A stretch of 64,000 bases of DNA from the NCBI GenBank assembly GCA_049322615.1, contig JBMORX010000010.1, positions 89,416 through 153,415 of the forward strand, given 5' to 3'. Position numbers and translations under genes: made by a program. Positions 6,001 to 63,840 of this stretch are shown piece after piece. The notes below the pieces were generated by a model, which saw only the letters and a list, made by a program, of their open reading frames with translations, was not told the DNA's origin and ran no database searches. Position 1 is the first letter of the stretch; each line of letters starts with the position of its first letter. The DNA is from Patescibacteria group bacterium. Lineage in GTDB: Bacteria > Patescibacteriota > Microgenomatia > CAYGWK01.

Positions 6001-6843
6001 AAAAGTGCCTGAAGTTGACCAAATCTTGGGCGAGGCAGAAGCGATAATTAAATTACCTGCCGGATTAATGGCCGGGACAGTTCGGACCGTCGCCCCCATG
6101 GTCGCCGTCGGCTCGGCATTGGTAGCTGAAGCCAGAGGAAATCCTTGCAACGTTTCCGCGTTTAAGGCATAACCGACAGTGGCGATTTGAATTCTTGGAG
6201 TGGCTTCGGAGTCTGAACCAACGGTTATCCCAAGCCAGACCGAGGCGTTTTCCGAAAAAACCGAAGAGGCAATCGCCCCTCCGCAATCAGAGCCCAAAAT
6301 GGTGTTAAAAATTCCATCCTCATCGGGGTCAATTGAGCAGGTGCCCGAATCCCAAAGAGTATTCCCGCCAGAGGAGGCATCATAAAGTCTAAATCTCATG
6401 TTGGTGGCGGTCGTAATCGGAGTATTTGCCGAGTCAGTCAGCCTGCCCTGAAAAGAAAGATAGCGGTTGGGGACAACCGGGGCGGCCGGATAGGCAAGTT
6501 TTTCCGGAGCCTTTTGGATAAACTGCTGGTAAATGCCAAAGCCTAAAGCCGCCAGAAAGATGATTAAGATTAGAAAGTTTAAATAAGTGAAGTAGGGAAG
6601 AGCACGGTAGGCGCGAAGCGGAAGCTTCGCTTTAGAAATTAGTAATTTGTAATTAGTAATTAGAGAAGCCTTTTGGATAAAAGGATTCTCTTTAAGGTAT
6701 CCTTCTCTCACTGCCCAGGAAAAGAACTTTCGCAGCGAGGATTCTTTTCTTTTAAGGCTTTTGGCAGAGGCCCCCCGCATTGCCAGGTATTGGCGGAAAG
6801 TTTTTAGGGTATTTTTATCTATTTTTTGCCAAAAATTAGTCAT
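1..6843 (-). CDS. Giant surface protein (>2,280 aa), partial: the C-terminus lies beyond the window start. Reading from its N-terminus, the domains are a phage-integrase N-terminal SAM-like (core-binding) domain, a transmembrane helix, and a long extracellular region of tail-fibre-like GNVGIGTTSP repeats. It carries two Hint/intein insertions.
   Basis: Start ATG at 6843..6841 overlaps the TGA of the upstream gene (ATGA). I translated the minus strand from 6843 to about 6430 (MTNFWQKIDKNTLKTFRQYLAMRGASAKSLKRKESSLRKFFSWAVREGYLKENPF..., then the TM helix YFTYLNFLILIIFLAALGFGIY), and 4500..660 and 420..1 continuously without stops. The recurring GGCAACGTCGGCATCGGGACGAC (GNVGIGTT) codons at 204, 690, 2397, 4512 and 5115 are all in the same frame relative to 6843. 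The ORF track misses it, probably because no stop lies inside the window. Confidence 0.78.
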   Translation of the reverse strand, partial: MTNFWQKIDKNTLKTFRQYLAMRGASAKSLKRKESSLRKFFSWAVREGYLKENPFIQKASLITNYKLLISKAKLPLRAYRALPYFTYLNFLILIIFLAALGFGIYQQFIQKAPEKLAYPAAPVVPNRYLSFQGRLTDSANTPITTATNMRFRLYDASSGGNTLWDSGTCSIDPDEDGIFNTILGSDCGGAIASSVFSENASVWLGITVGSDSEATPRIQIATVGYALNAETLQGFPLASATNAEPTATMGATVRTVPAINPAGNLIIASASPKIWSTSGTFQIRGQALSIVTDTGTNGNIAIAPDGSGVLNLTLSGGTGNVISATDANLGSSGGREANTLLYGSVANNNTNLNLLKLESGSTPSPKFTVDYSGNASAAGILRANTTGSYFTGDITVSGGDITGAGGVSLDIGEQSASYIVSSAGISVGGGTTYYINSSGTGNLNALTLAGNLTLNANVASNLIPSSGNTYDLGSTSLYWNNLYVNNIYGGSSGTSGYWTKTSGVIYPNNTYESVAIGGTATSSAKLYFEGTTGNASMSGTLTIGQGQTIRPAYGPLQLAYKSGADAWTTGMVMTEQGYVGIGTTNPGQKLDVLGSIQAAGHILPSGANRHLGLSTSHWSSLYVDYFRHSDSDNYFIGPAAYGEWIIKGEGDATHNAVTLSDYTTGKGLSILGNGDTYISGNVGIGTTSPGSKLQVAGDITPEATGTRNLGSSSLYWNALYANNIYSPSSGTSGYWQRNAQALSPTNITDDVLLGATATSSALVKLTGTSGNNSWINTGNVGIGTTGPSKKLHVAGECVAEDSLVPVAQCQMSNVKCQMSNKQIKDVKPGDRVLSLNENTGEFAWQKVEKTLDKGIQEVYELKTESGKRIETTGNHPYLTPDGWKKVIFLKEREEIAVANLTHLEEGNIESNHPENNRQDINNSLNTHNSSLFQAKVGINNYNTTHNHSNTVGNQNIISNHRPSLLKSEANFKNNIQEEIEIKEAITSFIPNVLANKGAITPAESQATAPLVKNSEYTLGSPFNSPIDNHSTTSKLGDVKPHHQVPFSVQGADPVNPQHEPYTNSIKKANAKEYSGVKWEKIVSIKPAGKKHVYDLQIANTANFVANGIVAHNTYIANDLTLAEDATISGTLALGPQVQAYAGTCDASSEGKMYYDNAQDEYYYCDGSSWKAVASGASGVSGSGTQNYLPKWSTSSSLTDSIIYETGGQIGIGTTSPLAKLDVSGDASVSGNLYLASGGAVRPRNAGLLTLDYKSGVNAWTPALTVNNLGNVGIGTTAPSEKLDITGNLRVNGNGTDNYLELMRDPNVDFRIISTDNPVYGLAFKNQQSGAYPFRINSSATSDSLVLSSGNVGIGTTSPGAKLEIAGTAWLRGATGTTGLFVNSSGNVGIGLTNPGSALQVAGDITPEATGTRNLGSSSLYWNALYANNIYSPSSGTSGYWQRNAQALSPTNITDDVLLGATATSSALVKLTGTSGNNSWINTGNVGIGTTSPAQKLHVEGQCVTGDSLLPIVATEDTKILRDYDTKSENKKEKSPNISFVQIKDIKGGELVLSLNEKTGKIEPAKIKGLLDMGVKPVYRLTTEDGRQIRTTGNHPYLVRNWQDLLKESNIKQEQSDYGQTKSNSGSGVNIENINFVFGAHNNFLKTNATPKENIPSNTSVVKTNNFLLPFSLAKLGTISTTPNQPADKLTNRSDTIDSQIGSTPLIKNNLSEENSFVNAEWTKVIYLRPGMEIATADTSDGDPKGLLRGGGIGSRVKWAKIASIEYVGEEQVYDIEVEGTHNFVANGIVAHNTYILNDLTLAEDATISGTLSLGPQVQAYAGTCNAAAEGKMYYDNAADEYYYCNGSSWKAVASGASGVSGSGTQNYIPKWSTSSTLTDSILYETGSQIGIGTTSPLATLDIAGSASASGNLTFRGSGTAHLINLYDNGSLQIGNSVGGGTATPAFVVTSAGNIGIGTTGPTYKLEVAGTGYFNGGGIYASSGFLSVSDGNPVLTYSSRKAFLPNAAIITADSAVGAASIPLIIKGTSGQTGDLTQWQNSDGGVLSVVDKSGNVGIGTTSPSQKLDIAGNATISGTLGFGPNAPAYAGTCNASNKGKQYYDGTDDKMYYCNGTSWIVMGTSSSLSGTGTQNYIPKWSGSTTLTDSIIYETGSQIGIGTTSPLAKLDVSGDASVSGNLYLASGGAVRPRNAGLLTLDYKSGVNAWTPALTVNTVGNVGIGTTGPGSFKLNVDDPGAGSPSKYPLRLQNSLGAETLDFEIETVAVGRHEILSSGSLAFGTGGT
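1468..2340 (-). other. Intein / Hint-domain insertion 1 (291 aa) within the giant protein. It runs from Cys1 (codon 2340..2338) to the terminal Asn of VAHN (codon 1470..1468), with Thr at +1.
   Basis: Translation reads ...NTGNVGIGTTSPAQKLHVEGQ|CVTGDSLLPIVATEDTKILRD...TTGNHPYLV...VYDIEVEGTHNFVANGIVAHN|TYILNDLTLAEDATISGTL. Textbook intein blocks are present: A (C-x-x-x-D-S-L), B (TTGNHPY) and F/G (NFVANGIVAHN), followed by T. The central linker has no LAGLIDADG or HNH motif. Confidence 0.75.
3508..4455 (-). other. Intein / Hint-domain insertion 2 (316 aa), at the homologous site of the duplicated module. It runs from Cys1 (codon 4455..4453) to Asn (codon 3510..3508), with Thr at +1.
   Basis: Translation reads ...GIGTTGPSKKLHVAGE|CVAEDSLVPVAQCQMSNVKCQMSNVKCQMSNKQ...TTGNHPYLT...HVYDLQIANTANFVANGIVAHN|TYIANDLTLAEDATISGTL. 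The central region is N/S/H-rich and low-complexity, with no endonuclease motifs. Confidence 0.75.
4387..4421. repeat. Perfect 5x TGACATT heptanucleotide tandem repeat inside intein 2 of the giant gene. It encodes the QMSNVKC repeats.
   Basis: Sequence at 4387-4421 is tgacatt x5. Seven is not a multiple of three, so a +/-1 unit change shifts the reading frame. Confidence 0.9.
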
Positions 6844-7490
6844 TTCTTCCTTTCTCGAAATTCGAGCCTTTTTTTAAAAAGATTTTCCGAATAGCCGCCT
6901 TCTTCGATAAATTTTCGTTCAAGAGAGCGGATCATTTGGTCTAAAAGATAATTTTCTTTAGAAATAAGAGTAATCATAAGGTTGGCGAAACTCTCGGGAG
7001 AGCCAGTCCAATAAGACCAATTAGTCAAATTAGACTCATTGGCAGAGACGCGGAGAGAGCGGATCTTTAAAACCCGGGGGTCGTTTTTCTCCCAAAGCGT
7101 AAGCCTCCTAAATCTTAAGAAATCCCGATAGTCTTCTAAAAGTTCTCCATAACTTGCCCGAGCCACCCCAGTAAGTTTTATGTTCATCTTTAGGCTTTTT
7201 TCTAGCGAGGCTTCGACGATATTTTGTTTTCCCGAGCGGTCGGCTTGGGCCATTTGCTCAACCGTCCGGCGGTATTTTGGTTCTGAAAGATATTTTTGGC
7301 AGAACTGGTGGTTAAGACTGGAGATAACCACTGCCTGTTGATAAACAATCAGGCTTTCATAACCCCCAGGCTTTGAGTTAGACTTATTTGACTTATTGGT
7401 CCAATTGGTCATATAATTAAAGTGCGGGCCACCAAAAAGCGGCAAATTTTTGGTCCCCCCAAATTTTTGTGCAGCCCTTGGGGCCCGCAC
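6840..7490 (-). CDS. Four-helix-bundle family protein with a C-terminal suffix (216 aa). It is one of three paralogs of this type.
   Basis: The ORF contains TVEQMAQADRSGKQNIVEA...YGELLEDYRDFLRFRRLTLWEKNDPRV... and ends EGGYSENLFKKRLEFRERKK. This matches the ORFs at 23619..24104 and 30651..31241 (both ending ENLFKKRL). Recognition as the CPR-expanded four-helix-bundle (S23 IVS-like) family is from memory. Confidence 0.55.
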   Translation of the reverse strand: MRAPRAAQKFGGTKNLPLFGGPHFNYMTNWTNKSNKSNSKPGGYESLIVYQQAVVISSLNHQFCQKYLSEPKYRRTVEQMAQADRSGKQNIVEASLEKSLKMNIKLTGVARASYGELLEDYRDFLRFRRLTLWEKNDPRVLKIRSLRVSANESNLTNWSYWTGSPESFANLMITLISKENYLLDQMIRSLERKFIEEGGYSENLFKKRLEFRERKK

Positions 7491-7494
7491 CCTT

Positions 7495-7986
7495 TTAAGT
7501 TGCTATCTCGGCCCAAGTTAAGAACGCTCTTATATCAGAAAGATAGTTTTTGATAGTGTTAGAACTAGTCTTTTCAGCCTCCAGATGCTTTCTAAACTCT
7601 TCAAGAATTTTTTCTTCTCCCGTTATTTTATTGCTAGATTGCTTAATTGCTACATTGCTTAATTGCTTGGTGGGATTTTCCGAGATCCATGCTTGGGAAA
7701 GACAAAATTTGCCAAAGGTTCGCAGAGTCGAAAGCCGACGATTGACGGTTGAGAGGGGAAGGGAATTGGCTAAAAGAAAACTTTTGTAACCCAAGATGAA
7801 TTCCTCCTTAAGGTAAAGCCTCATCAACTGGGGTTCATCGTCGTTGACCGGAAGATTCCGACTTCTCAAAGTTAATTCTAACCAGCCAAGAAAGTGGTTT
7901 AAATCAGAAAGATAATTTCTGACGGTTATCGAAGAGAAACCTTGAAGTTTAAGATAAGTTTTAAAAGAATTGGGCAGGCTCGACAT
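7495..7986 (-). CDS. Protein made of two tandem phage-integrase N-terminal SAM-like (core-binding) domains with no catalytic domain (163 aa).
   Basis: Two repeats of the XerC/D N-terminal pattern: NSFKTYLKLQGFSSITVRNYLSDLNHFLGWLEL and EEFRKHLEAEKTSSNTIKNYLSDIRAFLTWAEIAT. No R..HxxR..Y catalytic region follows. Confidence 0.5.
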   Translation of the reverse strand: MSSLPNSFKTYLKLQGFSSITVRNYLSDLNHFLGWLELTLRSRNLPVNDDEPQLMRLYLKEEFILGYKSFLLANSLPLSTVNRRLSTLRTFGKFCLSQAWISENPTKQLSNVAIKQSSNKITGEEKILEEFRKHLEAEKTSSNTIKNYLSDIRAFLTWAEIAT

Positions 7987-10569: not shown

Positions 10570-10577
10570 TTTCTTTT

Positions 10578-10596
10578 GACAGGGTCCGTCCCTGTC
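10578..10596. repeat. REP-like palindromic hairpin GACAGGGTCCGTCCCTGTC, copy 1, flanking the IS200-like tnpA.
   Basis: Perfect 7-bp stem with a TCCG loop. Identical copies lie at 10790-10808 and 11301-11319. Confidence 0.8.
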
Positions 10597-11281
10597 ACCC
10601 TTCGATTATAAGATTTCCCAGCATCTCTCTGGGATCTTCTTGATAATCTTCAATAAAACTTTGATAGGAGAGAATGTCTTTTAGCGAGGTGCGGCGAGCA
10701 GTCTTAAAGAAAGAGAGAATTGGTTCTGGATTAATCCAGATGGCTTTTTTCTTTCCTAAATAGTAGGGGTAACTTGAGTATGGCCAATTGACAGGGTCCG
10801 TCCCTGTCAACTCGGCGGGGTTAAGGTGAAGATAGCGAGAAAGATGAAGAAGATACGGTTCTTCAAGGACGAGTACCGCTTTGTAATTTCCCTGAAAAAG
10901 ATAACCATTTCGTTTGTATTTGCGGTTAAAATACATAGCATAATTTGTTAGGAGTCGCCTTAAAAGTTTAGTCATGCCGTTGGAGGTCTTTTGCGTCAGA
11001 AGAAGATGGAAATGGTTTGGCATAAGACAATAGGCGAGAAGTTGTAACTCTTGGCTTAAAGAGGAGGAGAAATCCCTTATTCTTGTTGGTTTAAAACCAG
11101 TAATTTCTCCAAGGGGATGGGTAAAGTTTGTTTTTGGGGGCGAAAGATAGAATTTTAAGAAATGGAGGAAAACTCGGTAGTCTTGGTCGTCAAGAAAAAT
11201 ATCTCGTTTTTCAATTCCGCGATTATAAACATGATAGTGGCCGTTTTCAATGTAGACCTTAATGCGGTTTTTGGCAGGCAT
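10595..11281 (-). mobile_element. tnpA: IS200/IS605-family (Y1 HUH, RAYT-like) transposase gene bracketed by cognate hairpins.
   Basis: 228-aa ORF with HYHVYNRG, the HUH motif MPNHFHLL, and GYLFQGNYKAV (catalytic Tyr). GACAGGGTCCGTCCCTGTC hairpins lie just outside both ends (10578-10596, 11301-11319), and a third lies in frame inside the ORF (10790-10808, encoding TGTDPV). Confidence 0.8.
10790..10808. repeat. REP-like hairpin copy 2 (inside the tnpA coding sequence).
   Basis: GACAGGGTCCGTCCCTGTC. Confidence 0.8.
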
Positions 11282-11328: not shown

Positions 11329-12321
11329 TTAGGTGGTTTTCTCTTTGGGGGTCTCTTCTTCAAGTTCTTCTTTTTCTTTTTGGCGCCGGCGGAGAAAAAG
11401 GACAATAAGAATAGCGATGACAATCGCCAAGACTATCGCCAGGGCGATCCTGACTGGAAAAACAACAAAGTAGAGGGTGGCAAGCAAAACCTGACCGGTC
11501 GTTCCATAAGAAGCCGATAAATCTGCCCGATAGCGACCCAAAAGATATTTAGCGTTCCAGGTATTTTGATAGATAAAAGAGGCACTGGGAAAAATATTTC
11601 TTTCCTCAAGGGGCATAACCGTGGTTACTTTACCCAACATATTTCTGACCGTAATCGTCCCCTTTGGGGCAAGATGCAAATCAGAGAGATTTAAAATCTC
11701 CGTGGTGAACTTAACCGGTCCAAATTCTAAAAACTTTGGGGCGTCGAATAATTTGACTAAAGCCCGTTCTGTTACCGGTCCTTCAACCGTAAAATAAACC
11801 AAAGTTCCAACCACTTGCTGAATAGCGGTACCGGCCCCCGTACCCGCCCCAATTCGGGGGGGAGTCCCTTTTGACTGATATAAAACTCCGGCATAATGTC
11901 CTCCAGGTAGGGCATCCAAAGGAACGTTAGCGGAGACAACGATATTAACTGTTTGTTTTGGAGCAACTGCCACTGAAGTTGGGGAAAGTCTAATCCAGGA
12001 AGAAGCCGCCCAGCGACCAGAAACTTGGGCGCCGACAAACTCCGGAGTTCCGGCGGTATCCTTGACAATAAAATCCTTGGCAACGACGGCTAGGTAGGCA
12101 GTCTCGTCTCCTTCATTTCGAAATTGAATAGTTTTTTGAACAAACTCTCCGGGCTTGACTTTGACTTCTAAACGAGGAGGAATGGCGGTAAAAATCTGGG
12201 TCTGCGCCCGCGCGAAGCGCGGAATAAGCAAATAAGCAAATAAGCAAATGACAAATAAGCCAATAATAAGAAATTTGAAATTTGAAATTTGAAATTTGAA
12301 ATTGATTTGTTTATTTGACAT
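11329..12321 (-). CDS. C-terminally membrane-anchored surface protein B1 (330 aa). It has a signal peptide, a beta-rich ectodomain, a C-terminal TM helix and a charged tail.
   Basis: MSNKQINFKFQISNFKFLIIGLFVICLFAYLLIPRFARAQ... then IPPRLEVKVKPGEFVQKTIQFRNEGDETAYL... and a C-terminal ALAIVLAIVIAILIVLFLRRRQKEKEE. It is a paralog of 14433..15452. The architecture is reminiscent of DUF916-type anchor proteins of WxL loci (from memory, unverified). Confidence 0.6.
   Translation of the reverse strand: MSNKQINFKFQISNFKFLIIGLFVICLFAYLLIPRFARAQTQIFTAIPPRLEVKVKPGEFVQKTIQFRNEGDETAYLAVVAKDFIVKDTAGTPEFVGAQVSGRWAASSWIRLSPTSVAVAPKQTVNIVVSANVPLDALPGGHYAGVLYQSKGTPPRIGAGTGAGTAIQQVVGTLVYFTVEGPVTERALVKLFDAPKFLEFGPVKFTTEILNLSDLHLAPKGTITVRNMLGKVTTVMPLEERNIFPSASFIYQNTWNAKYLLGRYRADLSASYGTTGQVLLATLYFVVFPVRIALAIVLAIVIAILIVLFLRRRQKEKEELEEETPKEKTT
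12271..12298. repeat. 4x AAATTTG heptanucleotide tandem repeat within codons 6-16 of B1, followed by three 8-nt TTGCTTAT units that form the signal-peptide core.
   Basis: aaatttg x4 at 12271-12298 encodes the NFKFQISNFKF segment on the minus strand. Confidence 0.85.
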
Positions 12322-15473: not shown

Positions 15474-16268
15474 TTAGTAGGTTGGTGTTGCCACAAAAAT
15501 AATATAGTTCTCATAATCTCCCGCCGCCTGGCTTCCCGAGATATTGACTTTATAAGTAACCGTTCCCACCCTATTTTTGCCCACCTGGGAACTTGACATG
15601 ACTATGCTTGGGTCCTCTGAGGCTGCCAAAGAGGGAAAAGGACGAAAATAAGTAGAGTTGACAAAAGTCGCCGGAATATCTTGTCCTTGCATATTATAGC
15701 CAAAACCATACTTAGTATTATCTGTCCAAGGCTGGGCCGTGGTTTCATCGCAGGTTTGGGCTCCACCATTACAGGTAGTATCGGAAATAGTGGCTGTTCC
15801 TGCCAGGGTTTTTAAGGTATCACTTTCTCGGGCGGTCACCTGATAGCCGCCGGCGCCACCGGCGGAAACAGTTAAAGTATTGGTTTGGGTTGAGGGTGTC
15901 CCTGGAGTTAAAGTGCCAAAATCAATAGATAAATCAGAGATTGTAAACCGGAAAGGGATGATGGACTTAAGATACCAAAAACCGCTTCTTACCTTGTATC
16001 CAGTTGAAGTGTAGAGTCCGGGAGCAGTCTGCCCGCCGGTGACCCCAAGTTTATAACTTGAGGAAGTGGGTAGCCCGGCGCCCATATTGACATTGCCCAT
16101 CTGGATTTTATAAGAATCGGAAGATAAGTTCTCGGCGCGAGCGCCTCGAGTAATAAGCAAATAAGCAGAGCTTGTTGCTACGCAATAAGCAAATAAGCAA
16201 ATAAGCAAATAAGCAAATAATTTGAAATTTGAAATTTGAAATTGATTTGACATTTGCTTATTTGACAT
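15474..16268 (-). CDS. Secreted surface protein A2 (264 aa), paralog of A1, with the C-terminus SGSQAAGDYENYIIFVATPTY.
   Basis: The N-terminus MSNKQMSNQFQISNFKLFAYLLICLFAYCVATSSAYLLITRGARA is encoded largely by tandem 7/8-nt repeats. The body is Thr/Gly-rich. Confidence 0.6.
   Translation of the reverse strand: MSNKQMSNQFQISNFKLFAYLLICLFAYCVATSSAYLLITRGARAENLSSDSYKIQMGNVNMGAGLPTSSSYKLGVTGGQTAPGLYTSTGYKVRSGFWYLKSIIPFRFTISDLSIDFGTLTPGTPSTQTNTLTVSAGGAGGYQVTARESDTLKTLAGTATISDTTCNGGAQTCDETTAQPWTDNTKYGFGYNMQGQDIPATFVNSTYFRPFPSLAASEDPSIVMSSSQVGKNRVGTVTYKVNISGSQAAGDYENYIIFVATPTY
16221..16241. repeat. 3x TTTGAAA heptamer tract in the A2 5' coding region. It is flanked by 4x AATAAGCA octamers (16170-16210) and GACATTT heptamers (16244-16280) around the start codon.
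   Basis: Read directly at 16170-16280. Confidence 0.85.
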
Positions 16269-20269: not shown

Positions 20270-20905
20270 ATGGAAGAGATTGATGTTAAATTAACTAACA
20301 AGGATATTGAGGGAAGATTTAATTGGGAGGCTTTCATTGAGAAACATAAGATTTCCTTAATTTTTGGACTTTTGGGATTGATTTTGGTGGGAGGTGGGTT
20401 CCTGCTTATTTTAAAACTGGGTCAGCCGGAAGATAAGATCGAGATTATTTCTTCGGAAACCTCCTCGGACACAATCCTGGCTGATATCGAAGGAGCGGTG
20501 CAAAAACCCGGAGTTTACAAACTTCAAACTGGCAGTCGACTTCAGGATTTGCTCGTGGCTGCTGGTGGACTCTCTTTAGAGGCGGATAGAAACTGGGCTG
20601 AGAAAATGCTTAATCGAGCGGAGAAGTTGACTGACGGAAAAAAAGTCTATATTCCGAAAAAAGGAGAAGCCCCACTTCGCCCTTCGGGCTCCGTTGGGGG
20701 CACGGGAAGCATTGGCGAGGGTAAGCAGGTAAACATTAATACCGCCAGCCAGTCCGAGCTGGAATCTCTTCGGGGAATCGGACCGGTAACGGCTCAAAAA
20801 ATTATTGATAGCCGTCCATACCGAGAAGTATCTGACCTCTTGACAAAAAAGATTTTAAAAAGTAATGTTTATCAGAGAATAGAGAATCAGTTAACAGTAT
20901 ACTAG
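20270..20905 (+). CDS. comEA: ComEA-like competence protein (membrane anchor plus C-terminal helix-hairpin-helix DNA-binding domain).
   Basis: N-terminal TM, then VNINTASQSELESLRGIGPVTAQKIIDSRPY (HhH). Confidence 0.75.
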   Translation: MEEIDVKLTNKDIEGRFNWEAFIEKHKISLIFGLLGLILVGGGFLLILKLGQPEDKIEIISSETSSDTILADIEGAVQKPGVYKLQTGSRLQDLLVAAGGLSLEADRNWAEKMLNRAEKLTDGKKVYIPKKGEAPLRPSGSVGGTGSIGEGKQVNINTASQSELESLRGIGPVTAQKIIDSRPYREVSDLLTKKILKSNVYQRIENQLTVY

Positions 20906-20918
20906 AATTGGAGATTAG

Positions 20919-21068
20919 TGGCTCGGGTAGGAATTTGTTGTTCGGTTTCGTCATGGCATCCCCCTTCGGGGGTCGCCCTCGGATTCAAGGTTTCAAAACT
21001 CAAGTTGTGTTCCGGAGTCCTCGGGCTTGCCAGGTGAAACCTTCACAAAAATTCTACCCTCGCCCTTA
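20919..21068 (+). repeat. R-element copy 1. This is a ~150-nt structured intergenic repeat with a closing helix P1 (GGGTAGGAATT/AATTCTACCC), the conserved TTGTTG.TCGGTTTC and AAACTCAAGTTGTGTTCC boxes, two variable hairpins, and the tail CCTCGCCCTTA.
   Basis: It aligns with the copies at 22306, 22529, 32621, 35128 (divergent) and 39995 (partial). The helix pairs differ in sequence but stay complementary. Confidence 0.7.
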
Positions 21069-21137
21069 TATGTTATGAATTTTTGCGTTTCTGCTTATTT
21101 TGCGTTTTTGCGTTTGCAAAGGAGGTGAGAAATATGT

Positions 21138-22301
21138 GTGATGACTGCAGAGAACACCATCCAGAACTTTATAATCCGGATGGGACCAGGAAAGAACAAC
21201 CCAAAGAAGAGGGTGAGCAACCAGCAGAAGAGTAAACTAAACTGGTTTTTGTTTTTGGTCTTTCTTTCTCTTTTGTTTCTATTGCGGCTTGGGACTTTTC
21301 TTAAGCCGCAATTTGTTTCCGGGACAAAAATTAAAATTACTGGAACCTTGCATCAGGAACCGAAAAGAACTGGTGGGCTGCAGAGGTTTTCTCTCGCTGG
21401 AATAAAAATCACCACCTGGAGATATCTGGAATATCATTATGGCGATAGGCTGGAGGCGGTGGGAATAGTCAAAGAGAACAATCTTGAGTTGCCTGAGATT
21501 AAGAAAGAAGAAAGAAGGGCGGAGAGAGGAGTTTTATTTTGGATTTACAGACTCCGGCAAAAAATTGAGGAAATTTACCGGCGGACCCTTCCTGAACCCC
21601 AGGCCAGCTTACTTTCGGGCGTTGTTTTGGGTTCGAAATCGGGGATGCCAGCCGATTTTTATGAAGCCTTGCGAAAAACTGGCACTCTCCATGTTGTCGT
21701 GGCTTCGGGCATGAATGTTTCTATTTTAGCCGGCACCTTGGTTTCTTTTTTAATTTTATTTATTTCCCGAAAGAAAGCTGTTATTTTAAGTTCTATTTTG
21801 ATATGGTTTTATGTGCTTTTGGCAGGAGGGGAGGCACCAGTGGTAAGGGCAGGGATTATGGGAACCCTGGCTTTTTTAGCTCAAGGGTTAGGTCGGGAAG
21901 AAGATGCTTGGCGGGGATTGGGGTTGGCCGCCGGGATTTTACTGTTTTTAAATCCTTTAAATATTACAGATTTAGGCTTTCAACTTTCTTTTTCGGCGAC
22001 TTTTGGAATTTTATTCTTCGGACCCCTGTTTAGCAGATTATTTGCTAGACTGCCAAAACAGATTCGTTCTGATTTAAGCCAAACTTTGGCAGCCCAAATT
22101 GTAACTTTACCAATTATAATTTTGAATTTTGGTTATTATTCTGCCCTTTCACCCTTGGTTAATGTTTTGGTGGTTTTCGTTTTGCCTTGGATTATGAGAT
22201 TGGGAATTTTGGTGGCGGTTGGCGGTCAAATTTTTGCCTGGCTGACTTTGCCTTTTTTGACTTATTTTGTCTGGGTTGTAAAATTGTTTTCAAGGATTTA
22301 A
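21138..22301 (+). CDS. comEC: ComEC/Rec2 competence channel domain (membrane part). The start is probably downstream of 21138.
   Basis: TGTLHVVVASGMNVSILAG...GGEAPVVRAGIMGTLAFLAQGLGRE... matches the ComEC competence domain. The ORF ends at the first R2/R3 element. Confidence 0.75.
   Translation: MMTAENTIQNFIIRMGPGKNNPKKRVSNQQKSKLNWFLFLVFLSLLFLLRLGTFLKPQFVSGTKIKITGTLHQEPKRTGGLQRFSLAGIKITTWRYLEYHYGDRLEAVGIVKENNLELPEIKKEERRAERGVLFWIYRLRQKIEEIYRRTLPEPQASLLSGVVLGSKSGMPADFYEALRKTGTLHVVVASGMNVSILAGTLVSFLILFISRKKAVILSSILIWFYVLLAGGEAPVVRAGIMGTLAFLAQGLGREEDAWRGLGLAAGILLFLNPLNITDLGFQLSFSATFGILFFGPLFSRLFARLPKQIRSDLSQTLAAQIVTLPIIILNFGYYSALSPLVNVLVVFVLPWIMRLGILVAVGGQIFAWLTLPFLTYFVWVVKLFSRI
22261..22291. 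repeat. 31-nt direct repeat CTTATTTTGTCTGGGTTGTAAAATTGTTTTC, copy 1 (the 3' end of the comEC-N ORF).
   Basis: An identical copy lies at 22489-22519. The pair brackets R-element copy 2. Confidence 0.85.
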
Positions 22302-22305
22302 CTTT

Positions 22306-22456
22306 GGCTCGGAGACGAACGTTTTGCTTGAGTTTAGAGATGACGTCCGATTAAATCGGACACGGCCTGCTTAGATGAAGATTTTAAGACTCAAGTTGTG
22401 TCCCGGGAGGCGCAGGCCTGTCACATTAAACTCTGCGCAAAAGTTGTCTCCTCGCC
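22306..22456 (+). repeat. R-element copy 2 (P1 is GGAGACGAAC/GTTGTCTCC).
   Basis: ggctcggagacgaacgttttgcttgagtttagagatgacgtccgattaaatcggacacggcc...aaactcaagttgtgtcccgggaggcgcaggcctgtcacattaaactctgcgcaaaagttgtctcctcgcc. Nearly identical to copy 4 at 32621. Confidence 0.75.
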
Positions 22457-22488
22457 ATCTTTAGAAGAAAAATTTATTTAATTTTTAT

Positions 22489-22519
22489 CTTATTTTGTCT
22501 GGGTTGTAAAATTGTTTTC
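22489..22519. repeat. 31-nt direct repeat, copy 2.
   Basis: Identical to 22261-22291. Confidence 0.85.
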
Positions 22520-22528
22520 GTAGGGATG

Positions 22529-22740
22529 TGGCTCGGGAATGAATTTGTTGCTTGGATTTAGTGATGGCTCCCGCCAATTAGGCGGGACCAGCTCGCGACT
22601 GGGTAATTCGAAACTCAAGTTGTGTTCCAGGGGGTCGCGGCTTGGAACGTCAGACGTTCCTTGCCACTTAAATCCGGCGCAAAAATTATTCCCTCGCCCT
22701 TAATTTCTTAATATCTTAGTCTCTTAATATCTTTTATTTT
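22529..22740 (+). repeat. R-element copy 3 (P1 is GGGAATGAATT/AATTATTCCC) plus the 3' tail CCTCGCCCTTAATTTCTTAATATCTTAGTCTCTTAATATCTT, which runs up to the ATG at 22741.
   Basis: Shares the same boxes. The tail is shared with copy 4 (32770-32811), which ends at the mreB ATG. Confidence 0.7.
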
Positions 22741-23622
22741 ATGAATCAAAAATTCAAATATTTCCTGGCTGTTTTAGGGTTAATCGCTGCTTTGTTGGCT
22801 GGAGCGATAACTTCCTTTCCCGACCAAAATCTTCATCTTGTCTTCTGTGATGTTGGTCAGGGAGATGCCACTCTTTTGGTTCGGGGGACAACCCAAGTTC
22901 TGGTTGATGGTGGTCCTTCGGATAAAGTCTTGGGCTGTCTTTCAAAACACTTGCCTTTTTGGGATAGAGATTTGGAGATGGTCATTTTAACTCACCCAGA
23001 ATCTGATCACCTAACTGGCTTGGTCTCTGTTATAGAAAGATATGGTGTGAAGCAGTTAATCAGTAATTCGCTGCTTGCCGATAGTGGGGTTTTTAGCAAA
23101 TTTAGGGAAAAAGTGATAGAAGAGAAAATTCCGGTTTTCTCCCCGAAATCTGGAGACAAAATTAAAATTGGCAACCTGGAAATTAAGATTTTATATCCTT
23201 TGGAGAAATTGGGAGAGGAAATTGTCTGGAAATCTTCGGAAACCCCCCAAGTTTTAGGGATTTCAACCTATCCTGGCAATTTTAATGAGACCGCCATCGT
23301 CTCCGAGATAAATTTTGGGAATTTCAAAGTTCTTTTAACCGGAGATATTGGGGTGGAGGAAGAAAATCAGCTTCAGACTGAGCCTGTCGAAGTCTTGAAA
23401 GTCGCTCATCATGGCAGCAAATACTCAACTTCTCAAGAATTCTTAGAGAAAATCTCGCCAGAACTGGCAATAATTTCCGTTGGCGCTACCAACCGCTACG
23501 GTCACCCGGCAAACGAAGTGCTGAAGAGATTAAGAAATTTAGATATTAAGATATTAAGAACAGACTTAGATGGGGAGATTGAGATTATAAGCGACGGAAA
23601 GGGTTGGAAGGTTAGAGATTAA
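22741..23622 (+). CDS. comEC: ComEC C-terminal metallo-beta-lactamase-fold domain, as a separate ORF.
   Basis: HLVFCDVGQGDATLLVRGTTQVLVDGGP...ILTHPESDHLTGL (MBL HxHxDH motif). The 440-bp gap back to the channel ORF is filled by R2 and R3. Confidence 0.75.
   Translation: MNQKFKYFLAVLGLIAALLAGAITSFPDQNLHLVFCDVGQGDATLLVRGTTQVLVDGGPSDKVLGCLSKHLPFWDRDLEMVILTHPESDHLTGLVSVIERYGVKQLISNSLLADSGVFSKFREKVIEEKIPVFSPKSGDKIKIGNLEIKILYPLEKLGEEIVWKSSETPQVLGISTYPGNFNETAIVSEINFGNFKVLLTGDIGVEEENQLQTEPVEVLKVAHHGSKYSTSQEFLEKISPELAIISVGATNRYGHPANEVLKRLRNLDIKILRTDLDGEIEIISDGKGWKVRD
23530..23558. repeat. Partial copy (inverted) of the CTTAATATCTTAATATC element, in frame within the comEC-C ORF (encodes LRNLDIKILRT).
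   Basis: gaaatttagatattaagatattaagaac. The reverse complement shares 18 nt with the 33-nt element in rnhB and fmt. Confidence 0.6.
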
Positions 23623-24104
23623 TTTTCCTGACGGAATTGCCGGCGTTTTTTGAAAAGATTCTCGCGGAAGCCGCCCTCTCGGATAAATTTTTTTCTTAGG
23701 GATTCGATTTGTTTTTCTAAAAGATAGGTGGTTCTCTGACAAAGCATTATCATAAGATTGGCCGCTAGCTCTGGATTGTGGGGGATATGGGGGAATTGGG
23801 GGAGATGGGGGAAGGGTTCCCTCACCACCCTCAAATCCCTCAACTTCCTCATTCTCGGGTCGTCTTTTGACCAAATTTCCAATCCTCTTTGTCTTAAGAA
23901 ATCCTCATAGTCTTCTTCTAATTCTTTAATTGACCCTTTAGAAATACCTAAGAATTTAATATAGCCCTCTAATTCATATCCTTCGACGATGTCTTGTTTT
24001 CCAGATCTTCCTGCTTGTGTCATCTGGTCTCTTTGGCGAAGGAGCTCGCGTCCAGGTAAAAATTTAGGACAGAATTCAGTGGTTAAGTCGTATATTTTAG
24101 ACAA
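23619..24104 (-). CDS. Four-helix-bundle protein with C-terminal suffix (161 aa).
   Basis: RDQMTQAGRSGKQDIVEG...EEDYEDFLRQRGLEIWSKDDPR...EGGFRENLFKKRRQFRQEN. Paralog of 6840..7490 and 30651..31241. Confidence 0.55.
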   Translation of the reverse strand: MSKIYDLTTEFCPKFLPGRELLRQRDQMTQAGRSGKQDIVEGYELEGYIKFLGISKGSIKELEEDYEDFLRQRGLEIWSKDDPRMRKLRDLRVVREPFPHLPQFPHIPHNPELAANLMIMLCQRTTYLLEKQIESLRKKFIREGGFRENLFKKRRQFRQEN

Positions 24105-30650: not shown

Positions 30651-31241
30651 ATGCTGCCTAAATACAAATACCTTTTGACTTACCGTTATGCCGAAATTAT
30701 TCAGGACGGAACAAACGATTTTTGTCTAAGACACTTAAGTGACTTAAGAAACTTAAGAATTCCTACGAGGCGGACTGTCGAGCAGATGACGCAAAGCGGC
30801 CGGAGTCTGAAACAAAATATTATTGAGGCAGTAAGCGATAGTCTGACTTCGAAAAAAACCGAGATTAAACTTTTGGGAGTAGCCTACGGTTCGGTTGAAG
30901 AATTGATTGCCGATTTTGAAGATTTTTTAAGACAAAGAAACCTGCAAATTTGGCCGAAAACAGATAAGCGAGTCTTAATCTTTCGTCGACTTGGGTATCG
31001 CTTAAGTAACCTAAGTAACCTAAGTAACCTAAGTAACCTAAGTAACTTAGGAAACTTAAAAGAAAAACTAGTTTTACCGGAAAATCCCGAAGAAGCGGCC
31101 AATTTACTTTTGACTTTGTGTCACATGGAGAGTTATCTTTTAAGTTGTCAAATTAAAGCGGCGGAAGAAAAATTTATCAAAGAAGGCGGCTACACGGAAA
31201 ACTTGTTTAAAAAGCGCCTTGAAAGTAGAATACTTAAGTAA
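30651..31241 (+). CDS. Four-helix-bundle protein with suffix (196 aa). It contains an in-frame tandem repeat.
   Basis: RRTVEQMTQSGRSLKQNIIEA...EGGYTENLFKKRLESRILK. An internal 5x 12-nt repeat AAGTAACCTAAG (31002-31056) encodes LSNLSNLSNLSNLGNL. Confidence 0.55.
   Translation: MLPKYKYLLTYRYAEIIQDGTNDFCLRHLSDLRNLRIPTRRTVEQMTQSGRSLKQNIIEAVSDSLTSKKTEIKLLGVAYGSVEELIADFEDFLRQRNLQIWPKTDKRVLIFRRLGYRLSNLSNLSNLSNLSNLGNLKEKLVLPENPEEAANLLLTLCHMESYLLSCQIKAAEEKFIKEGGYTENLFKKRLESRILK
31002..31056. repeat. 5x 12-nt tandem repeat (CTTAAGTAACCT-type) inside the four-helix-bundle gene. Further CTTAAG-containing repeats lie at 30740-30770 and 31232-31265.
   Basis: cttaagtaacctaagtaacctaagtaacctaagtaacctaagtaacttagga. 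Confidence 0.85.
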
Positions 31242-31343: not shown

Positions 31344-32588
31344 CTAGCGAAGTGAGATGGCGTAGAGGTTTAAGGGTAAGTCTTTACCCAAGGCAGTTAA
31401 AATTAGAATTTTGTTGCCAGCCGGGAAGGGAAAGGCGAATGGAAATTCATAAGGACCAGAATAAACCACTGTCCTGTTTGTTCCATCGTATTCCATAATA
31501 ATAATTTTTTCCTTTTCAACCTGAATTAAATGCTTGCTGGTGGGAAACCAGGCAATGTTTGCTCCTTCAGCCGCTATCCAGAAATTCCGATCCTCTTTGA
31601 TATCGTAAACATAGGTTTGACCTACTTTGATGGTTCTTTCTTGTTTTTGGGTTGAGGCAGCCGGTAACGCTGGTATTAGATTTTCTGAAATATTGGCCGA
31701 GGCAGTGGCGGTGTAGAGAATTTTTGTCTCATCGGGAGCAAAAACTATATCTTGAGATGAGCCTTGAATGATTTTCAAGAGTTCTTGGGGAAGCTTTTTT
31801 AATTTCTGATCCCCTCTTTCCTTTGCCTCTTTCTCCCAAAGGCGTTGAATTGTCGTTAAGTTTGCGAAAACATCAACTAGTTGGGTGTTGGTCGTAAAGA
31901 CGCTCACGTCAACTAAAAAATTTTCTTCGGTTTTTCCAAGCTTTTCAGTCACGGCTAGGCCGTGCCTAGACGGGAGGCTGACGAGAATCTGTTTTGAATC
32001 TGGAGACCATTTATAGGTTGATTTTGAGAAATCTCTTCCATGGAGAACACTTCGGACAATCTGTCTTGGTTCTTTGGGCAACCATTGTTGTCCAAATGGA
32101 AGTTCGGATAGATCCAGGACCCAAAGACCATTCTTGTCAACTTCAGCCCCGGAGACACTATAGACAATTTTTGTTCCGTCTGGAGAAAAAACCGGGTTTT
32201 GCGCTCCGGTAAAGGTTAAAGCCTTAAGATCAGATACCTGGGGAAAAAGATAGGCATCGGTTTTAACCACCAGTTCTTTTTCAATTTTTAGGGTCTTCTT
32301 CCAGGGAATAAAGCCATCTTTTTTGATTTCCACCTCATAAGTTCCAGGAGAAAGTGAGATGGTGGTATTGGTGGCACTTTTTAATTGATTGTTGAGCCAG
32401 ACTTGGGCTCCGTCGGGGATTGAAGTGGCGACTAAAAGCCCGGTTGGAAGAAAGGTTTTTTTACCAAGATCTGGTTTGTACCCTTTGGCTAGTTGTATCA
32501 CCAAGTATGTTGAGCCTAAAATGGCAAAAACTATGGTGATAAAGATTAAAAATCGTTTTCCTATCATATTATGGACAAAGTATATCAT
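31344..32588 (-). CDS. Membrane-anchored protein with a PEGA-like domain and a TolB-like beta-propeller (PD40-type repeats).
   Basis: N-terminal TM, then TYEVEIKKDGFIPWKKTLKI (PEGA-like), then repeated SPDG..I.. motifs (FSPDGTKIVYSV, WSPDSKQILVSL, FAPDETKILYTA). Confidence 0.55.
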   Translation of the reverse strand: MIYFVHNMIGKRFLIFITIVFAILGSTYLVIQLAKGYKPDLGKKTFLPTGLLVATSIPDGAQVWLNNQLKSATNTTISLSPGTYEVEIKKDGFIPWKKTLKIEKELVVKTDAYLFPQVSDLKALTFTGAQNPVFSPDGTKIVYSVSGAEVDKNGLWVLDLSELPFGQQWLPKEPRQIVRSVLHGRDFSKSTYKWSPDSKQILVSLPSRHGLAVTEKLGKTEENFLVDVSVFTTNTQLVDVFANLTTIQRLWEKEAKERGDQKLKKLPQELLKIIQGSSQDIVFAPDETKILYTATASANISENLIPALPAASTQKQERTIKVGQTYVYDIKEDRNFWIAAEGANIAWFPTSKHLIQVEKEKIIIMEYDGTNRTVVYSGPYEFPFAFPFPAGNKILILTALGKDLPLNLYAISLR

Positions 32589-32620
32589 AAGTTGGTATAA
32601 TTGGGAAGTTTTTGGTTTGT

Positions 32621-32811
32621 TGGCTCGGAGACGAACGTTTTGCTTGAGTTTAGAGATGACGTCCCGCTTTGCGGGACACGGCCTGCTTAGATGAAGATTT
32701 CAAAACTCAAGTTGTGTTCCGGGAGGCGCAGGCCTGTCACATTAAACTCTGCGCAAAAGTTGTCTCCTCGCCCTTAATTTCTTAATATCTTAGTCTCTTA
32801 ATATCTTAAAA
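32621..32811 (+). repeat. R-element copy 4 plus its tail, directly abutting the mreB start codon.
   Basis: Near-identical to copy 2 (22306-22456) except for the P2 hairpin loop. The tail cctcgcccttaatttcttaatatcttagtctcttaatatcttaaaa is followed by the ATG at 32812. Confidence 0.75.
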
Positions 32812-34341: not shown

Positions 34342-35109
34342 ATGAAAGCTGATATCTTGGGAGTAAAAATTGACAATTTGAAAGAGAAAGAGGTAATTTA
34401 CGCGGTGCGTAAAAAGATAGCCAAAAAAGAGAAATTTTGGATTGCTACCCCTAATCCGGAGATGATAGTTCTGGCGCAAAAAGATTTGCAATTTAAAAGA
34501 ATTTTAAATTCTGCTGATTTGGCTATTCCAGATGGAATAGGTTTAGTTTGGGCGGGAAGAATTTTGGGGAGAGAGATAAGAGAGCGGGTAAGTGGGGTGG
34601 ATTTAATGGAAAAACTTTGTCAGGTGGGAAGCCAAAATGGCTGGAGTGTTTATTTAATTGGGGGGAAGCCAGAGGTGGCGAAAACGGCGCTTGAGGTTTT
34701 AAAAAAGCGCTATCCGGGCTTGAAAGGCTGGGCGGAAACAGGACCTGAATTAGAAGTGGGAAGTGGGAAATGGGAAGTGGGAAGAAAGAAGGGCGGAGTG
34801 GGAAGTGGGAAGTGGATAGAGAAAATAAATCAAAAAGAACCCACAATCCTTTTTGTTGGTTTTGGCATGGGCAAGCAGGAAAGATGGGTGGCAAAATATT
34901 TTGATATATTAAATATTGGGGGAGCAATGGTGGTTGGGGGCGCTTTTGATTTTATTTCTGGAAGAGCGCTCCGAGCGCCGATCCTGATCCAGGACTTGGG
35001 TCTTGAGTGGCTTTGGAGGTTAATCCAGGAGCCTTGGCGGATTAAAAGACAGTTGGCACTTGGCAGATTTGTTTTTTTGGTTTTGAAAGAGAGACTTTCT
35101 TTACTATAA
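34342..35109 (+). CDS. WecB/TagA/CpsF-family glycosyltransferase (N-acetylmannosaminyltransferase-like).
   Basis: ADLAIPDGIGLVWAGRILG...YLIGGKPEV...FVGFGMGKQERW. An in-frame insert of GGGAAGT 7-nt repeats at 34746-34812 encodes LEVGSGKWEVGRKKGGVGSGKW. The same GGGAAGT/GAGAAGT repeats occur intergenically at 33845-33885. Confidence 0.78.
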   Translation: MKADILGVKIDNLKEKEVIYAVRKKIAKKEKFWIATPNPEMIVLAQKDLQFKRILNSADLAIPDGIGLVWAGRILGREIRERVSGVDLMEKLCQVGSQNGWSVYLIGGKPEVAKTALEVLKKRYPGLKGWAETGPELEVGSGKWEVGRKKGGVGSGKWIEKINQKEPTILFVGFGMGKQERWVAKYFDILNIGGAMVVGGAFDFISGRALRAPILIQDLGLEWLWRLIQEPWRIKRQLALGRFVFLVLKERLSLL

Positions 35110-35127: not shown

Positions 35128-35300
35128 GACTCGGAGACGAACGTTTTGCTTGAGTTTAGATTGGATTGTTAGATTATTTGCTAGGGTATAGGGGATGAGT
35201 TAAGGTGAAGTAGCGCGTTACGGCTACGTCAATGGGTGACGTTACCCATAAACCAATCCTTAACGCGCCGCGTCACCATCACCGTAACCGTAACCTTTAT
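35128..35300 (+). repeat. R-element copy 5 (the 5' half CTCGGAGACGAACGTTTTGCTTGAGTTTAG is conserved, the 3' part divergent).
   Basis: The first 34 nt match copies 2 and 4. The rest carries GTTAC/GTAAC-rich hairpins. Confidence 0.5.
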
Positions 35301-39935: not shown

Positions 39936-39994
39936 TGAGTGAGGATGGGCAGGGAAAATCAATTACCTGTTCATTGAATTGAATATAAGCTTGG

Positions 39995-40100
39995 GGTGGA
40001 GATGAATTTTTGTTTTTTGGGTTCGGGAACGAATTTTTGCTTGGATTTAAAAATGGTTCCCGCCGATTCGGGGACCTACTGGCTTAAGTTAGTTTTCAAT
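39995..40100 (+). repeat. R-element copy 6 (partial or degenerate).
   Basis: ggggtggagatgaatttttgtt...gggaacgaatttttgcttggatttaaaaatggttcccgccgattcggggacc. Shares the 5' boxes and the P2-type hairpin. Confidence 0.45.

Positions 40101-62904: not shown

Positions 62905-63840
<936 letters not shown>

Follow-up and report, generated by a model that had tools for sequence, protein, structure and literature searches.

The genomes of Patescibacteria (candidate phyla radiation, CPR) are streamlined to about 1 Mb, and to our knowledge descriptions of regulatory RNAs or small mobile repeats in this group are very few. ERIC and Correia elements occur in longer variants with internal insertions and in shorter variants with internal deletions. 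The attC sites of integrons are imperfect palindromes 3' of genes that fold single-stranded; they have extrahelical bases, a spacer close to the base that stays unpaired, and a terminal structure that varies, and their structure is conserved more than their sequence. In REPINs, which are mobile DNA hairpins, compensatory changes are common, as are tandem clusters that take in flanking sequence (PMC3116915). Compensatory changes can also arise in a single event, by template switching during replication at inverted repeats (PMC8794818). Correia elements supply promoters and RNase III sites, i.e., elements of this type may furnish a promoter and, as RNA hairpins, bind RNase III (PMC2649163). Here we describe R, an intergenic repeat found in a 64,000-nt stretch of contig JBMORX010000010.1 from a Patescibacteria group bacterium, the whole stretch being called the window throughout. 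The nearest named relatives of the contig are Microgenomates, i.e., Shapirobacteria, Curtissbacteria, Amesbacteria and Blackburnbacteria.

R is a previously uncatalogued family, unusual in its degree of conservation and its branched build. No such hairpin-repeat family has been described before in the phylum, and literature searches found no description of R or of a comparable repeat in Patescibacteria. R is an insertion-polymorphic repeat and not a conserved leader of comEC or mreB, because orthologous loci in close relatives (70-93% protein identity) lack it. We lean, though only slightly, towards R being a family of non-coding, hairpin-forming insertion repeats of Microgenomates-type Patescibacteria, akin to MITE, REPIN, ERIC and Correia elements.

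R and REPINs are both non-coding, intergenic hairpins on a roughly 100-nt scale with conserved ends. Decayed singlets and long persistence with high sequence conservation are further common traits (PMC3116915). REPINs consist of two inverted REP palindromes with GTAG-like heads, whereas R is a single long hairpin with a three-way junction and the ends GGCTCGG/CCTCGCC. Moreover, no R-flanked gene for a REP-associated tyrosine transposase (RAYT) was found in the window, the copy number of R looks lower, and the hosts are Patescibacteria, not Proteobacteria. R shares with Correia, ERIC and RUP elements a unit length of 100-170 bp, terminal inverted repeats that are imperfect, a conserved core, insertion between operon genes and strain polymorphism. 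In contrast, R has no sequence similarity to Correia or ERIC, and no TA or other target duplication was detectable. The stems of R covary between subfamilies and its interior is branched, whereas Correia inverted repeats are fixed for transposase binding. Terminal inverted repeats and insertion polymorphism are also MITE-like. R resembles attC sites in its location 3' of genes, imperfect palindrome, single-strand fold, extrahelical bases, unpaired basal spacer, variable tip and a structure better conserved than the sequence, but it lacks the R''/R' core sites (RYYYAAC/GTTRRRY), its stem base reads GGC-TC-GG.../...CC-TC-GCC, and its neighbors are core housekeeping genes, not cassettes. An integron integrase was not found in the window, where only an N-terminal integrase fragment was seen. 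Finally, R looks like a cis-regulatory RNA in its closing helix, multi-stem junction, conserved unpaired nucleotides, covarying stems and position upstream of starts. Unlike a riboswitch or leader, it is not conserved upstream of orthologous genes and has no consistent gene association.

Copies and fold of R

We built two covariance models (CM), R1 and R2, and ran them over the window, also with filters off. R units are about 150 nt long (133-169 nt). The models found four full copies, all on the plus strand, at 99-145 bits (Table 1), and beyond these the filters-off search yielded only a fragment near 40020. Also, the box ACTCAAGTTGTGT occurred exactly four times in the window, each time on the plus strand, a count reached by none of 100 shuffles. 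An earlier note on this DNA had described a repeat family with shared boxes in six copies. The family is real, as judged by the box count and the four CM matches. Four of the six copies are full, whereas the one placed at 35128 is a 33-nt 5' fragment and the one at 39995 comprises two tandem 5' fragments, the second of which (40019-40076) keeps P1 to P3 of the fold described below.

Table 1. Positions of R, S and associated features; positions refer to the window unless a locus is named
Feature	Position	Strand	Remark
R copy, subtype C	20920-21064	+	comEA-comEC intergenic; CM 98.7/126.8 bits
R copy, subtype B	22306-22456	+	first of two tandem units past the comEC stop; CM 110.8/139.5 bits
R copy, subtype A	22530-22698	+	CM 137 bits
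R copy, subtype B	32622-32772	+	upstream of mreB; CM 116.7/145.4 bits
Truncated 5' R fragment, 33 nt	35128-35160	+	repeat finder, sequence reading
Two tandem truncated 5' R fragments	39993-40012, 40019-40076	+	CM E = 0.008 / 0.0018
comEC 3' end, left arm of 38-nt direct repeat	22254-22291	+	precedes first tandem R copy
Second copy of 38-nt comEC-end repeat	22482-22519	+	keeps ancestral ...KLFS-stop ending
AT-rich tail, CTTAATAT-like octamers	22699-22740	+	between R copy and MBL ATG
AT-rich tail	32773-32811	+	between R copy and mreB ATG; similar tail at the L045 site
Promoter-like site TGGACA-18-TG-TATAAT	32572-32601	+	20 nt upstream of the mreB R copy
Y1_Tnp (IS200/RAYT-like) gene	10595-11281	-	above Pfam Y1_Tnp cut-off
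Y1_Tnp (IS200/RAYT-like) gene	42468-43175	-	above Pfam Y1_Tnp cut-off
Palindromic repeat S, about 100 nt	35192-35300; L038 1816-1935; L039 1640-1759		GGTGAAGTAGCGCGTTACGG...CCTTAACGCGCC...CACCGTAACC

The fold of R was derived from a model-based alignment of 11 copies (A6). A rod of about 29 bp leads up to a three-way junction. At the base, the 3-bp closing helix P1 (GGC/GCC) gives way to an invariant TC/TC internal loop, above which the rod continues for about 26 bp. It first comprises 6 + 5 + 4 bp with two bulges in the 5' arm, the first of them an invariant G, then an internal loop with TT in the 5' arm and NGC in the 3' arm, then the 7-bp helix P2 (GGATTTA/TAAATCC), an internal loop GAGA/CA and a 4-bp helix TGGC/GCCA leading into the junction. 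Of the two junction branches, one forms a hypervariable hairpin, and the other consists of a 9-bp helix, interrupted by a single bulge, that encloses about 35 nt; this apical region bears the near-invariant box AAC-NNNN-GTTGTGTTCC. The terminal inverted repeats are imperfect, i.e., the 5' end GGCTCGGGAACGAATTTGTTGC is an imperfect reverse complement of the 3' end GCGCAAAAATTGTTCCCTCGCC, and their inner parts covary between subfamilies.

Pairing in this fold reached 96.0% of 449 cells, compared with 34-48% when partners were slid by 1-3 columns. Both-sided changes were found in 17 of 43 pairs, and none of 500 shuffles reached the observed values. A conserved fold with compensatory pairs, as claimed in the earlier note, is supported. 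The stems and the hairpin tip vary, whereas the internal loops (TC/TC, GAGA/CA) and the junction ACC are invariant; the 5' box covaries with the 3' sequences TAAACTC/TAAATCC/GAAACC, and the central box stays constant. The P1 variants listed in the earlier note, GGAGACGAAC/GTTGTCTCC, GGGAATGAATT/AATTATTCCC and GGGTAGGAATT/AATTCTACCC, were correct and covary. A further helix proposed there, GCTTGAGTTT:AAACTCAAG, was not borne out, as 83.8% of its cells were paired compared with 82.9% in shuffles, and 156 of 500 shuffles scored as high. A variable hairpin exists as claimed for P2, but its TTTG is not a GNRA loop. In the 20920 copy, the variable hairpin is capped by cUUCGg, and the predicted fold of this copy has -61.4 kcal/mol (z = -5.3). 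The 22530 copy carries an additional 18-nt hairpin inserted after P4.

Both strands of R fold equally well. G·T was present in 12 of 449 paired cells. Six of these 12 represent one inherited position, and the other six equal the number of A·C cells (6), i.e., outside the inherited position an RNA-type asymmetry was not seen. Calling a functional strand by G·U versus A·C counts was uninformative. A small protein encoded by R was also rejected, since no frame is consistently open and the lengths of 133-169 nt do not differ by multiples of three.

Known RNA families, plasmids and phages gave no match. With Rfam 15 (4227 models), no family matched R when the whole window was searched at gathering thresholds, and no R-overlapping match above a chance-level score appeared over 20850-22800 at E up to 10. 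BLAST against plasmid and phage collections returned nothing resembling R.

R at orthologous loci and in related genomes

We scanned 185,579 species genomes, JGI metagenomes and viral collections with an exact pattern for R and, in addition, fetched contigs encoding close homologs of the window's ComEC or MreB and examined them for R. Because the scan pattern required the exact box, the variants CTCTAG and CTCGAG escaped it; the census is therefore biased, and the family is certainly wider than the scan matches. Eight further copies were found in related Patescibacteria contigs (loci L002, L003, L005, L014, L034 with two copies, L036 and L045). True copies from the scan of species genomes were confined to the metagenome-assembled genome (MAG) CAYGWK01 (L002, L003, L005), the JGI metagenomes gave one contig (L014), and the viral pattern matches, together with several others, were chance. 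The L036 copy is divergent and truncated where the contig ends, and the L045 version is 44 nt long. In the CAYGWK MAG, R adjoins genes for FemAB, NrdR and FTCD and is not located at comEC or mreB. The genes next to R, i.e., comEC, MBL, mreB, FemAB, NrdR and FTCD, are functionally unrelated. The distance from R to the start codon ranges from 16 to 184 nt, which does not support a fixed spacing. Solo 3'-end fragments of R (e.g., AAACCTTCGCAAAAGTTATATCCTCACCC) lie 10-15 nt downstream of full copies at about 5698-5726 in L002 and about 3640-3675 in L003.

Presence/absence polymorphism at orthologous sites was seen at both comEA-comEC-MBL and mreB. Between comEA and comEC, R is present in the window and in L034, where the copy at 1086-1237 is the ortholog of the 20920 copy. 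This site is empty in L033, L035, L036 and L038. In L033, L035 and L037, comEA, comEC and MBL abut or overlap (ATGA) without room for R, and in L036 the genes abut or overlap without R at the comEA-comEC junction. Directly after the comEC stop codon, R was found in the window, L034 and L036. The 22530 copy is orthologous to L034 2346-2496 and L036 3518-3650, and the 6-nt junction that separates it from the comEC stop codon is the same in L034. At this post-comEC site, L038 and L039 have another palindromic repeat, S.

All relatives down to 40% identity have a Competence-only open reading frame (ORF) of about 360 aa that ends ...YFVWIVKLFS-stop and is followed by a separate MBL ORF. We hence rejected the idea that R split comEC, because this ORF and its end are ancestral; the genes previously named comEC-N and comEC-C are not halves of one gene. 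In the window, 38-nt repeats of the comEC end, 95% identical and spaced by 228 nt, precede each of the two tandem R copies. They may reflect a tandem duplication of a unit of flank, R and tail, or an att-like duplication. The first repeat copy alters the comEC C-terminus from ...KLFS-stop to ...KLFSRI-stop. Also, comEC probably starts with GTG at 21213 (VSNQQKSKLNWF..., as in L036) and not at 21138. The 150 nt that follow the 20920 copy (window 21065-21235) contain TTTTGCGTTT repeats and a 33-codon ORF with its ATG at 21135 (MCDDCREHHPELYNPDGTRKEQPKEEGEQPAEE) and the best Shine-Dalgarno sequence of the region, AAAGGAGGTGA.

At mreB, the spacer between the PEGA gene and mreB is 90 nt long and empty of R in L040, L042, L043 and L044 (91-93% MreB identity), L040 belonging to the CAYGWK MAG. 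L045, with 93% MreB identity, has at the window's mreB site a 44-nt mini-R (1323-1366) in which the outer stem is perfect and both bulges are kept. A TTCA cap closes it, the octamer tail follows as in the window, and the three-way junction is deleted in its entirety together with the box.

A 37-nt tail is identical between the 22530 and 32622 copies and ends 4-7 nt before the ATGs at 22741 and 32812, in line with the earlier report of tails reaching these start codons. It is not conserved in the MBL ortholog L034b. Logan contigs L031 and L032 (SRR32167786, same organism) break inside this shared tail, 34-37 nt upstream of the MBL and mreB starts, which is consistent with a repeat collapsing short-read assemblies. 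A leaderless promoter inside the tail was not supported, as -10-like hexamers are ubiquitous in AT-rich spacers. Spacers with an 8-nt period and CTTAATAT/TTAAGATA-like units are found at 22699-22733, 32773-32807, 2256-2300, 23518-23568, 46503-46593 and 63601-63643. Other tandem units are AAGCAAAT at 12212-12257 and 16173-16226, GGGAAGT(G) around 33851 and at 34750-34832, and TAAGTAACC at 31003-31061. Short tandem units seem to be a genome-wide style of intergenic sequence.

Turnover of R was evident from truncated, internally deleted and tandemly duplicated derivatives, the tandem unit including 38 nt of flank, and from mosaic exchange between copies. The 22306 and mreB copies are 93% identical except for a replaced hairpin tip. 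At the same time, identity among type-A copies from at least four genomes, the 22530 copy included, is 86-92%, and it is 91% for the orthologous pair w22529/L034b. Between these genomes, comEC, MBL and mreB reach only 47-56% identity at third-codon positions, i.e., synonymous sites are saturated and the sequence conservation of R lies far above them. Seven of eight independent scorable insertions are sense to a neighboring gene, and the R strand is the more G-rich of the two in eight of eight loci. Although antisense to both of its FemAB neighbors, the L002 copy is co-oriented with the majority gene strand. This co-orientation and the G-rich strand fit a strand-specific insertion of single-stranded DNA as well as they fit transcription.

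Insertion repeat or selected RNA

As insertion repeats, R copies would arise by insertion or duplication at the DNA level, and the hairpin of one strand would be selected, either by the mobilizing machinery or by the host. The copies would be co-transcribed with their neighboring genes, because most of them are sense-oriented and intercistronic or in a 5' untranslated region (UTR). Sites resembling -10/-35 elements lie 11-21 nt upstream of all four window copies. The strong promoter-like site located 20 nt before the mreB copy agrees with the consensus at 11 of 12 positions and includes an extended -10 TG; its function is putative, as it is a consensus match. R is therefore probably transcribed in the sense direction, and the 32622 copy, located between this site and the mreB start codon, would be part of the mreB 5' UTR. 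The RNA would form the same rod, a plausible substrate for a double-strand-specific RNase or a stabilizing 5' structure. It may thereby affect processing or stability of the flanking mRNAs and would uncouple or modulate downstream gene expression, as described for Correia elements (PMC2649163).

Several results weigh against R as an insertion repeat. Neither a target-site duplication nor a cognate transposase was found for R: no common direct repeat flanks the 11 copies, with empty and filled sites too diverged to define junctions, and the 38-nt flank duplication at the tandem pair was the sole repeat noted. Neither the window nor related loci totaling about 195 kb contained a parent insertion sequence (IS) with R termini and a transposase. 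A DDE transposase or reverse transcriptase was absent among the window ORFs scanned, and the Y1 transposase genes of the window are flanked by hairpins of their own, not by R. The copy number is modest, as the 64-kb window has four full copies and L040 has none over 18.8 kb. Furthermore, the invariant unpaired loops and the asymmetric conserved apical box exceed the needs of a generic palindrome, orthologous copies are 91% identical despite saturated synonymous sites, and the insertions are biased towards sense (7/8). Loops, box, identity and sense bias equally fit an RNA selected by the host.

Such a host-selected RNA function is a serious rival and is compatible with mobility. R would then be primarily a cis-acting RNA module, portable between 5' UTRs and intercistronic sites, that sets mRNA processing, stability or translation of the downstream gene and was duplicated to several operons, its mobility being incidental. 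We regard this as possible, though less likely than an insertion repeat. The seven sense insertions and the promoter-like site before the mreB copy argue for it, as do loops, junction and apical box that stay invariant while the stems covary, and the 91% identity of w22529/L034b compared with about 50% at third-codon positions. It is also consistent with the MBL and mreB starts downstream of R, which have no Shine-Dalgarno sequence, and with the L045 mini-R, where the perfect stem and both bulges are retained. However, the same genes do without R in relatives of 70-93% protein identity, the L002 copy runs antisense to the FemAB genes on either side of it, and the L014 copy is located behind an intrinsic terminator. 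The variable distance to the start codon (16-184 nt) and a low use of G·U that is symmetric with A·C also speak against a cis-acting module.

The earlier note had taken covariation as the hallmark of a selected RNA fold. This does not hold, because REPINs and template switching also give compensatory changes. Covariation is no proof of RNA function for R, since it is typical of mobile DNA hairpins too and G·U is rare here. As to the MITE match without RNA signal that had been set against the RNA interpretation, we found MITE-like behavior in the form of insertion polymorphism. R provides a clean test case in which compensatory variation alone cannot separate a selected RNA from a mobile DNA hairpin.

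Alternatively, R could be a REPIN-type element that a Y1 (HUH) transposase of RAYT/IS200 type, with its gene elsewhere in the genome, moves as single-stranded DNA, which we consider doubtful. Genes for Y1_Tnp proteins are present in the window (Table 1) and in L042, and the L042 protein passes the NCBIfam RAYT cut-off. The best NCBIfam match of the two window proteins is likewise the REP-associated tyrosine transposase, but at 38 and 53 bits they stay under the RAYT cut-off of 80. Long hairpins, compensatory changes, tandem clusters and decayed fragments are as in REPINs, and the G-rich R strand in all eight loci, including the co-oriented antisense copy of L002, also points to such a mechanism. 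In contrast, a GTAG-type head is missing from R, neither of its arms is a REP palindrome, and its center has a conserved asymmetric box, whereas the spacer is the least conserved part of a REPIN. The hairpins that flank the window Y1 genes are TGACAGGGTCCGTCCCTGTCA and TTAACCTTAGAGGTTAA. The first of these was found at 10577 and 11300, and at 10788 inside the ORF of the 10595-11281 gene, and TTAACCTTAGAGGTTAAG at 42414 and 43191 brackets the 42468-43175 gene. The two genes look like IS200-type units because each is bracketed by its own short, perfect hairpin. A RAYT link to R was not supported, as the flanking hairpins are neither R nor S. A related Y1 gene in L042 (11103-11768) belongs to the same syntenic block, where it lies close by but not in the same place.

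Similarly doubtful to us is that R is a new structured nucleic-acid module under strong purifying selection, i.e., a portable RNA device for processing or stability, for protein docking, or a small ribozyme. A dedicated partner could recognize the junction and the apical box, and R could spread between operons and lineages. If true, this would explain the 86-92% identity across genomes with saturated synonymous sites. Should R turn out to act as a host-selected RNA, or to be moved by a new enzyme, it would be the first of its kind for the phylum.

We regard the remaining readings, i.e., small RNA, riboswitch, ribozyme and small protein, as unlikely. R copies as genes for a multicopy trans-acting small RNA, with the apical box (AAACUCAAGUUGUGUUCC) as seed or protein-binding site, have little probability. 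The -10/-35-like sites 11-21 nt upstream of the four window copies, the U-rich tail after the closing stem and a conserved single-stranded box on a stable scaffold would suit a small RNA. However, complementary targets in the window were at chance level (one site with two mismatches versus 1.06 expected), no terminator was called after the element, and the L034a, L005 and L003 copies have no obvious promoters. Moreover, the L036 copy has another sequence in place of the box, and the L045 mini-R has no box at all. A riboswitch or self-cleaving ribozyme is very improbable: the three-way junction with conserved junction and loop nucleotides and the closing helix joining 5' and 3' ends would fit, but none of the 4227 Rfam models matched, those for hammerhead, twister, pistol, hatchet, HDV-like and 6S RNAs included. 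Also, at about 29 bp the closing rod greatly exceeds a switchable P1 in length and stability, R has neither an expression platform nor a consistent gene association, and it is dispensable at orthologous loci.

Structured palindromic repeats of at least two families, R and S, enter tight junctions of core operons (comEA-comEC-MBL, mreB) and break translational coupling there. A 150-nt rod is thereby placed before essential genes.

Repeat S and other features of the window

S folds as a long hairpin (z about -3.5) and had no Rfam match. The window and L038 copies are 90% identical, although the ComEC proteins of the two are only 71% identical. In the window, S is preceded by a 31-nt segment (35161-35191) that matches the L038 comEC 3' end including the stop codon at 26 of 31 positions. 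This segment is located between the truncated R at 35128-35160 and S, far from comEC, and looks like flanking DNA carried with a repeat or like the relic of a composite rearrangement.

The integrase fragment mentioned above is an ORF at 7495-7986 (minus strand; region 6840-7986) with an integrase N-terminal SAM-like domain alone. The ORF that follows it has a sub-threshold match to 23S_rRNA_IVP, the 23S rRNA intervening-sequence protein family, and a second 23S_rRNA_IVP-like ORF is found just past the MBL gene (23619-24104, minus strand). Similar ORFs occur sporadically and in different places in relatives (L035 6539-7075, L043 3240-3608), which suggests another small mobile gene family. Finally, a very large repetitive ORF on the minus strand (1-6800) runs off the window start and contains internal 300-nt repeats, 79-96% identical, with a recurring GTCGTCCCGATGCCGAC motif.

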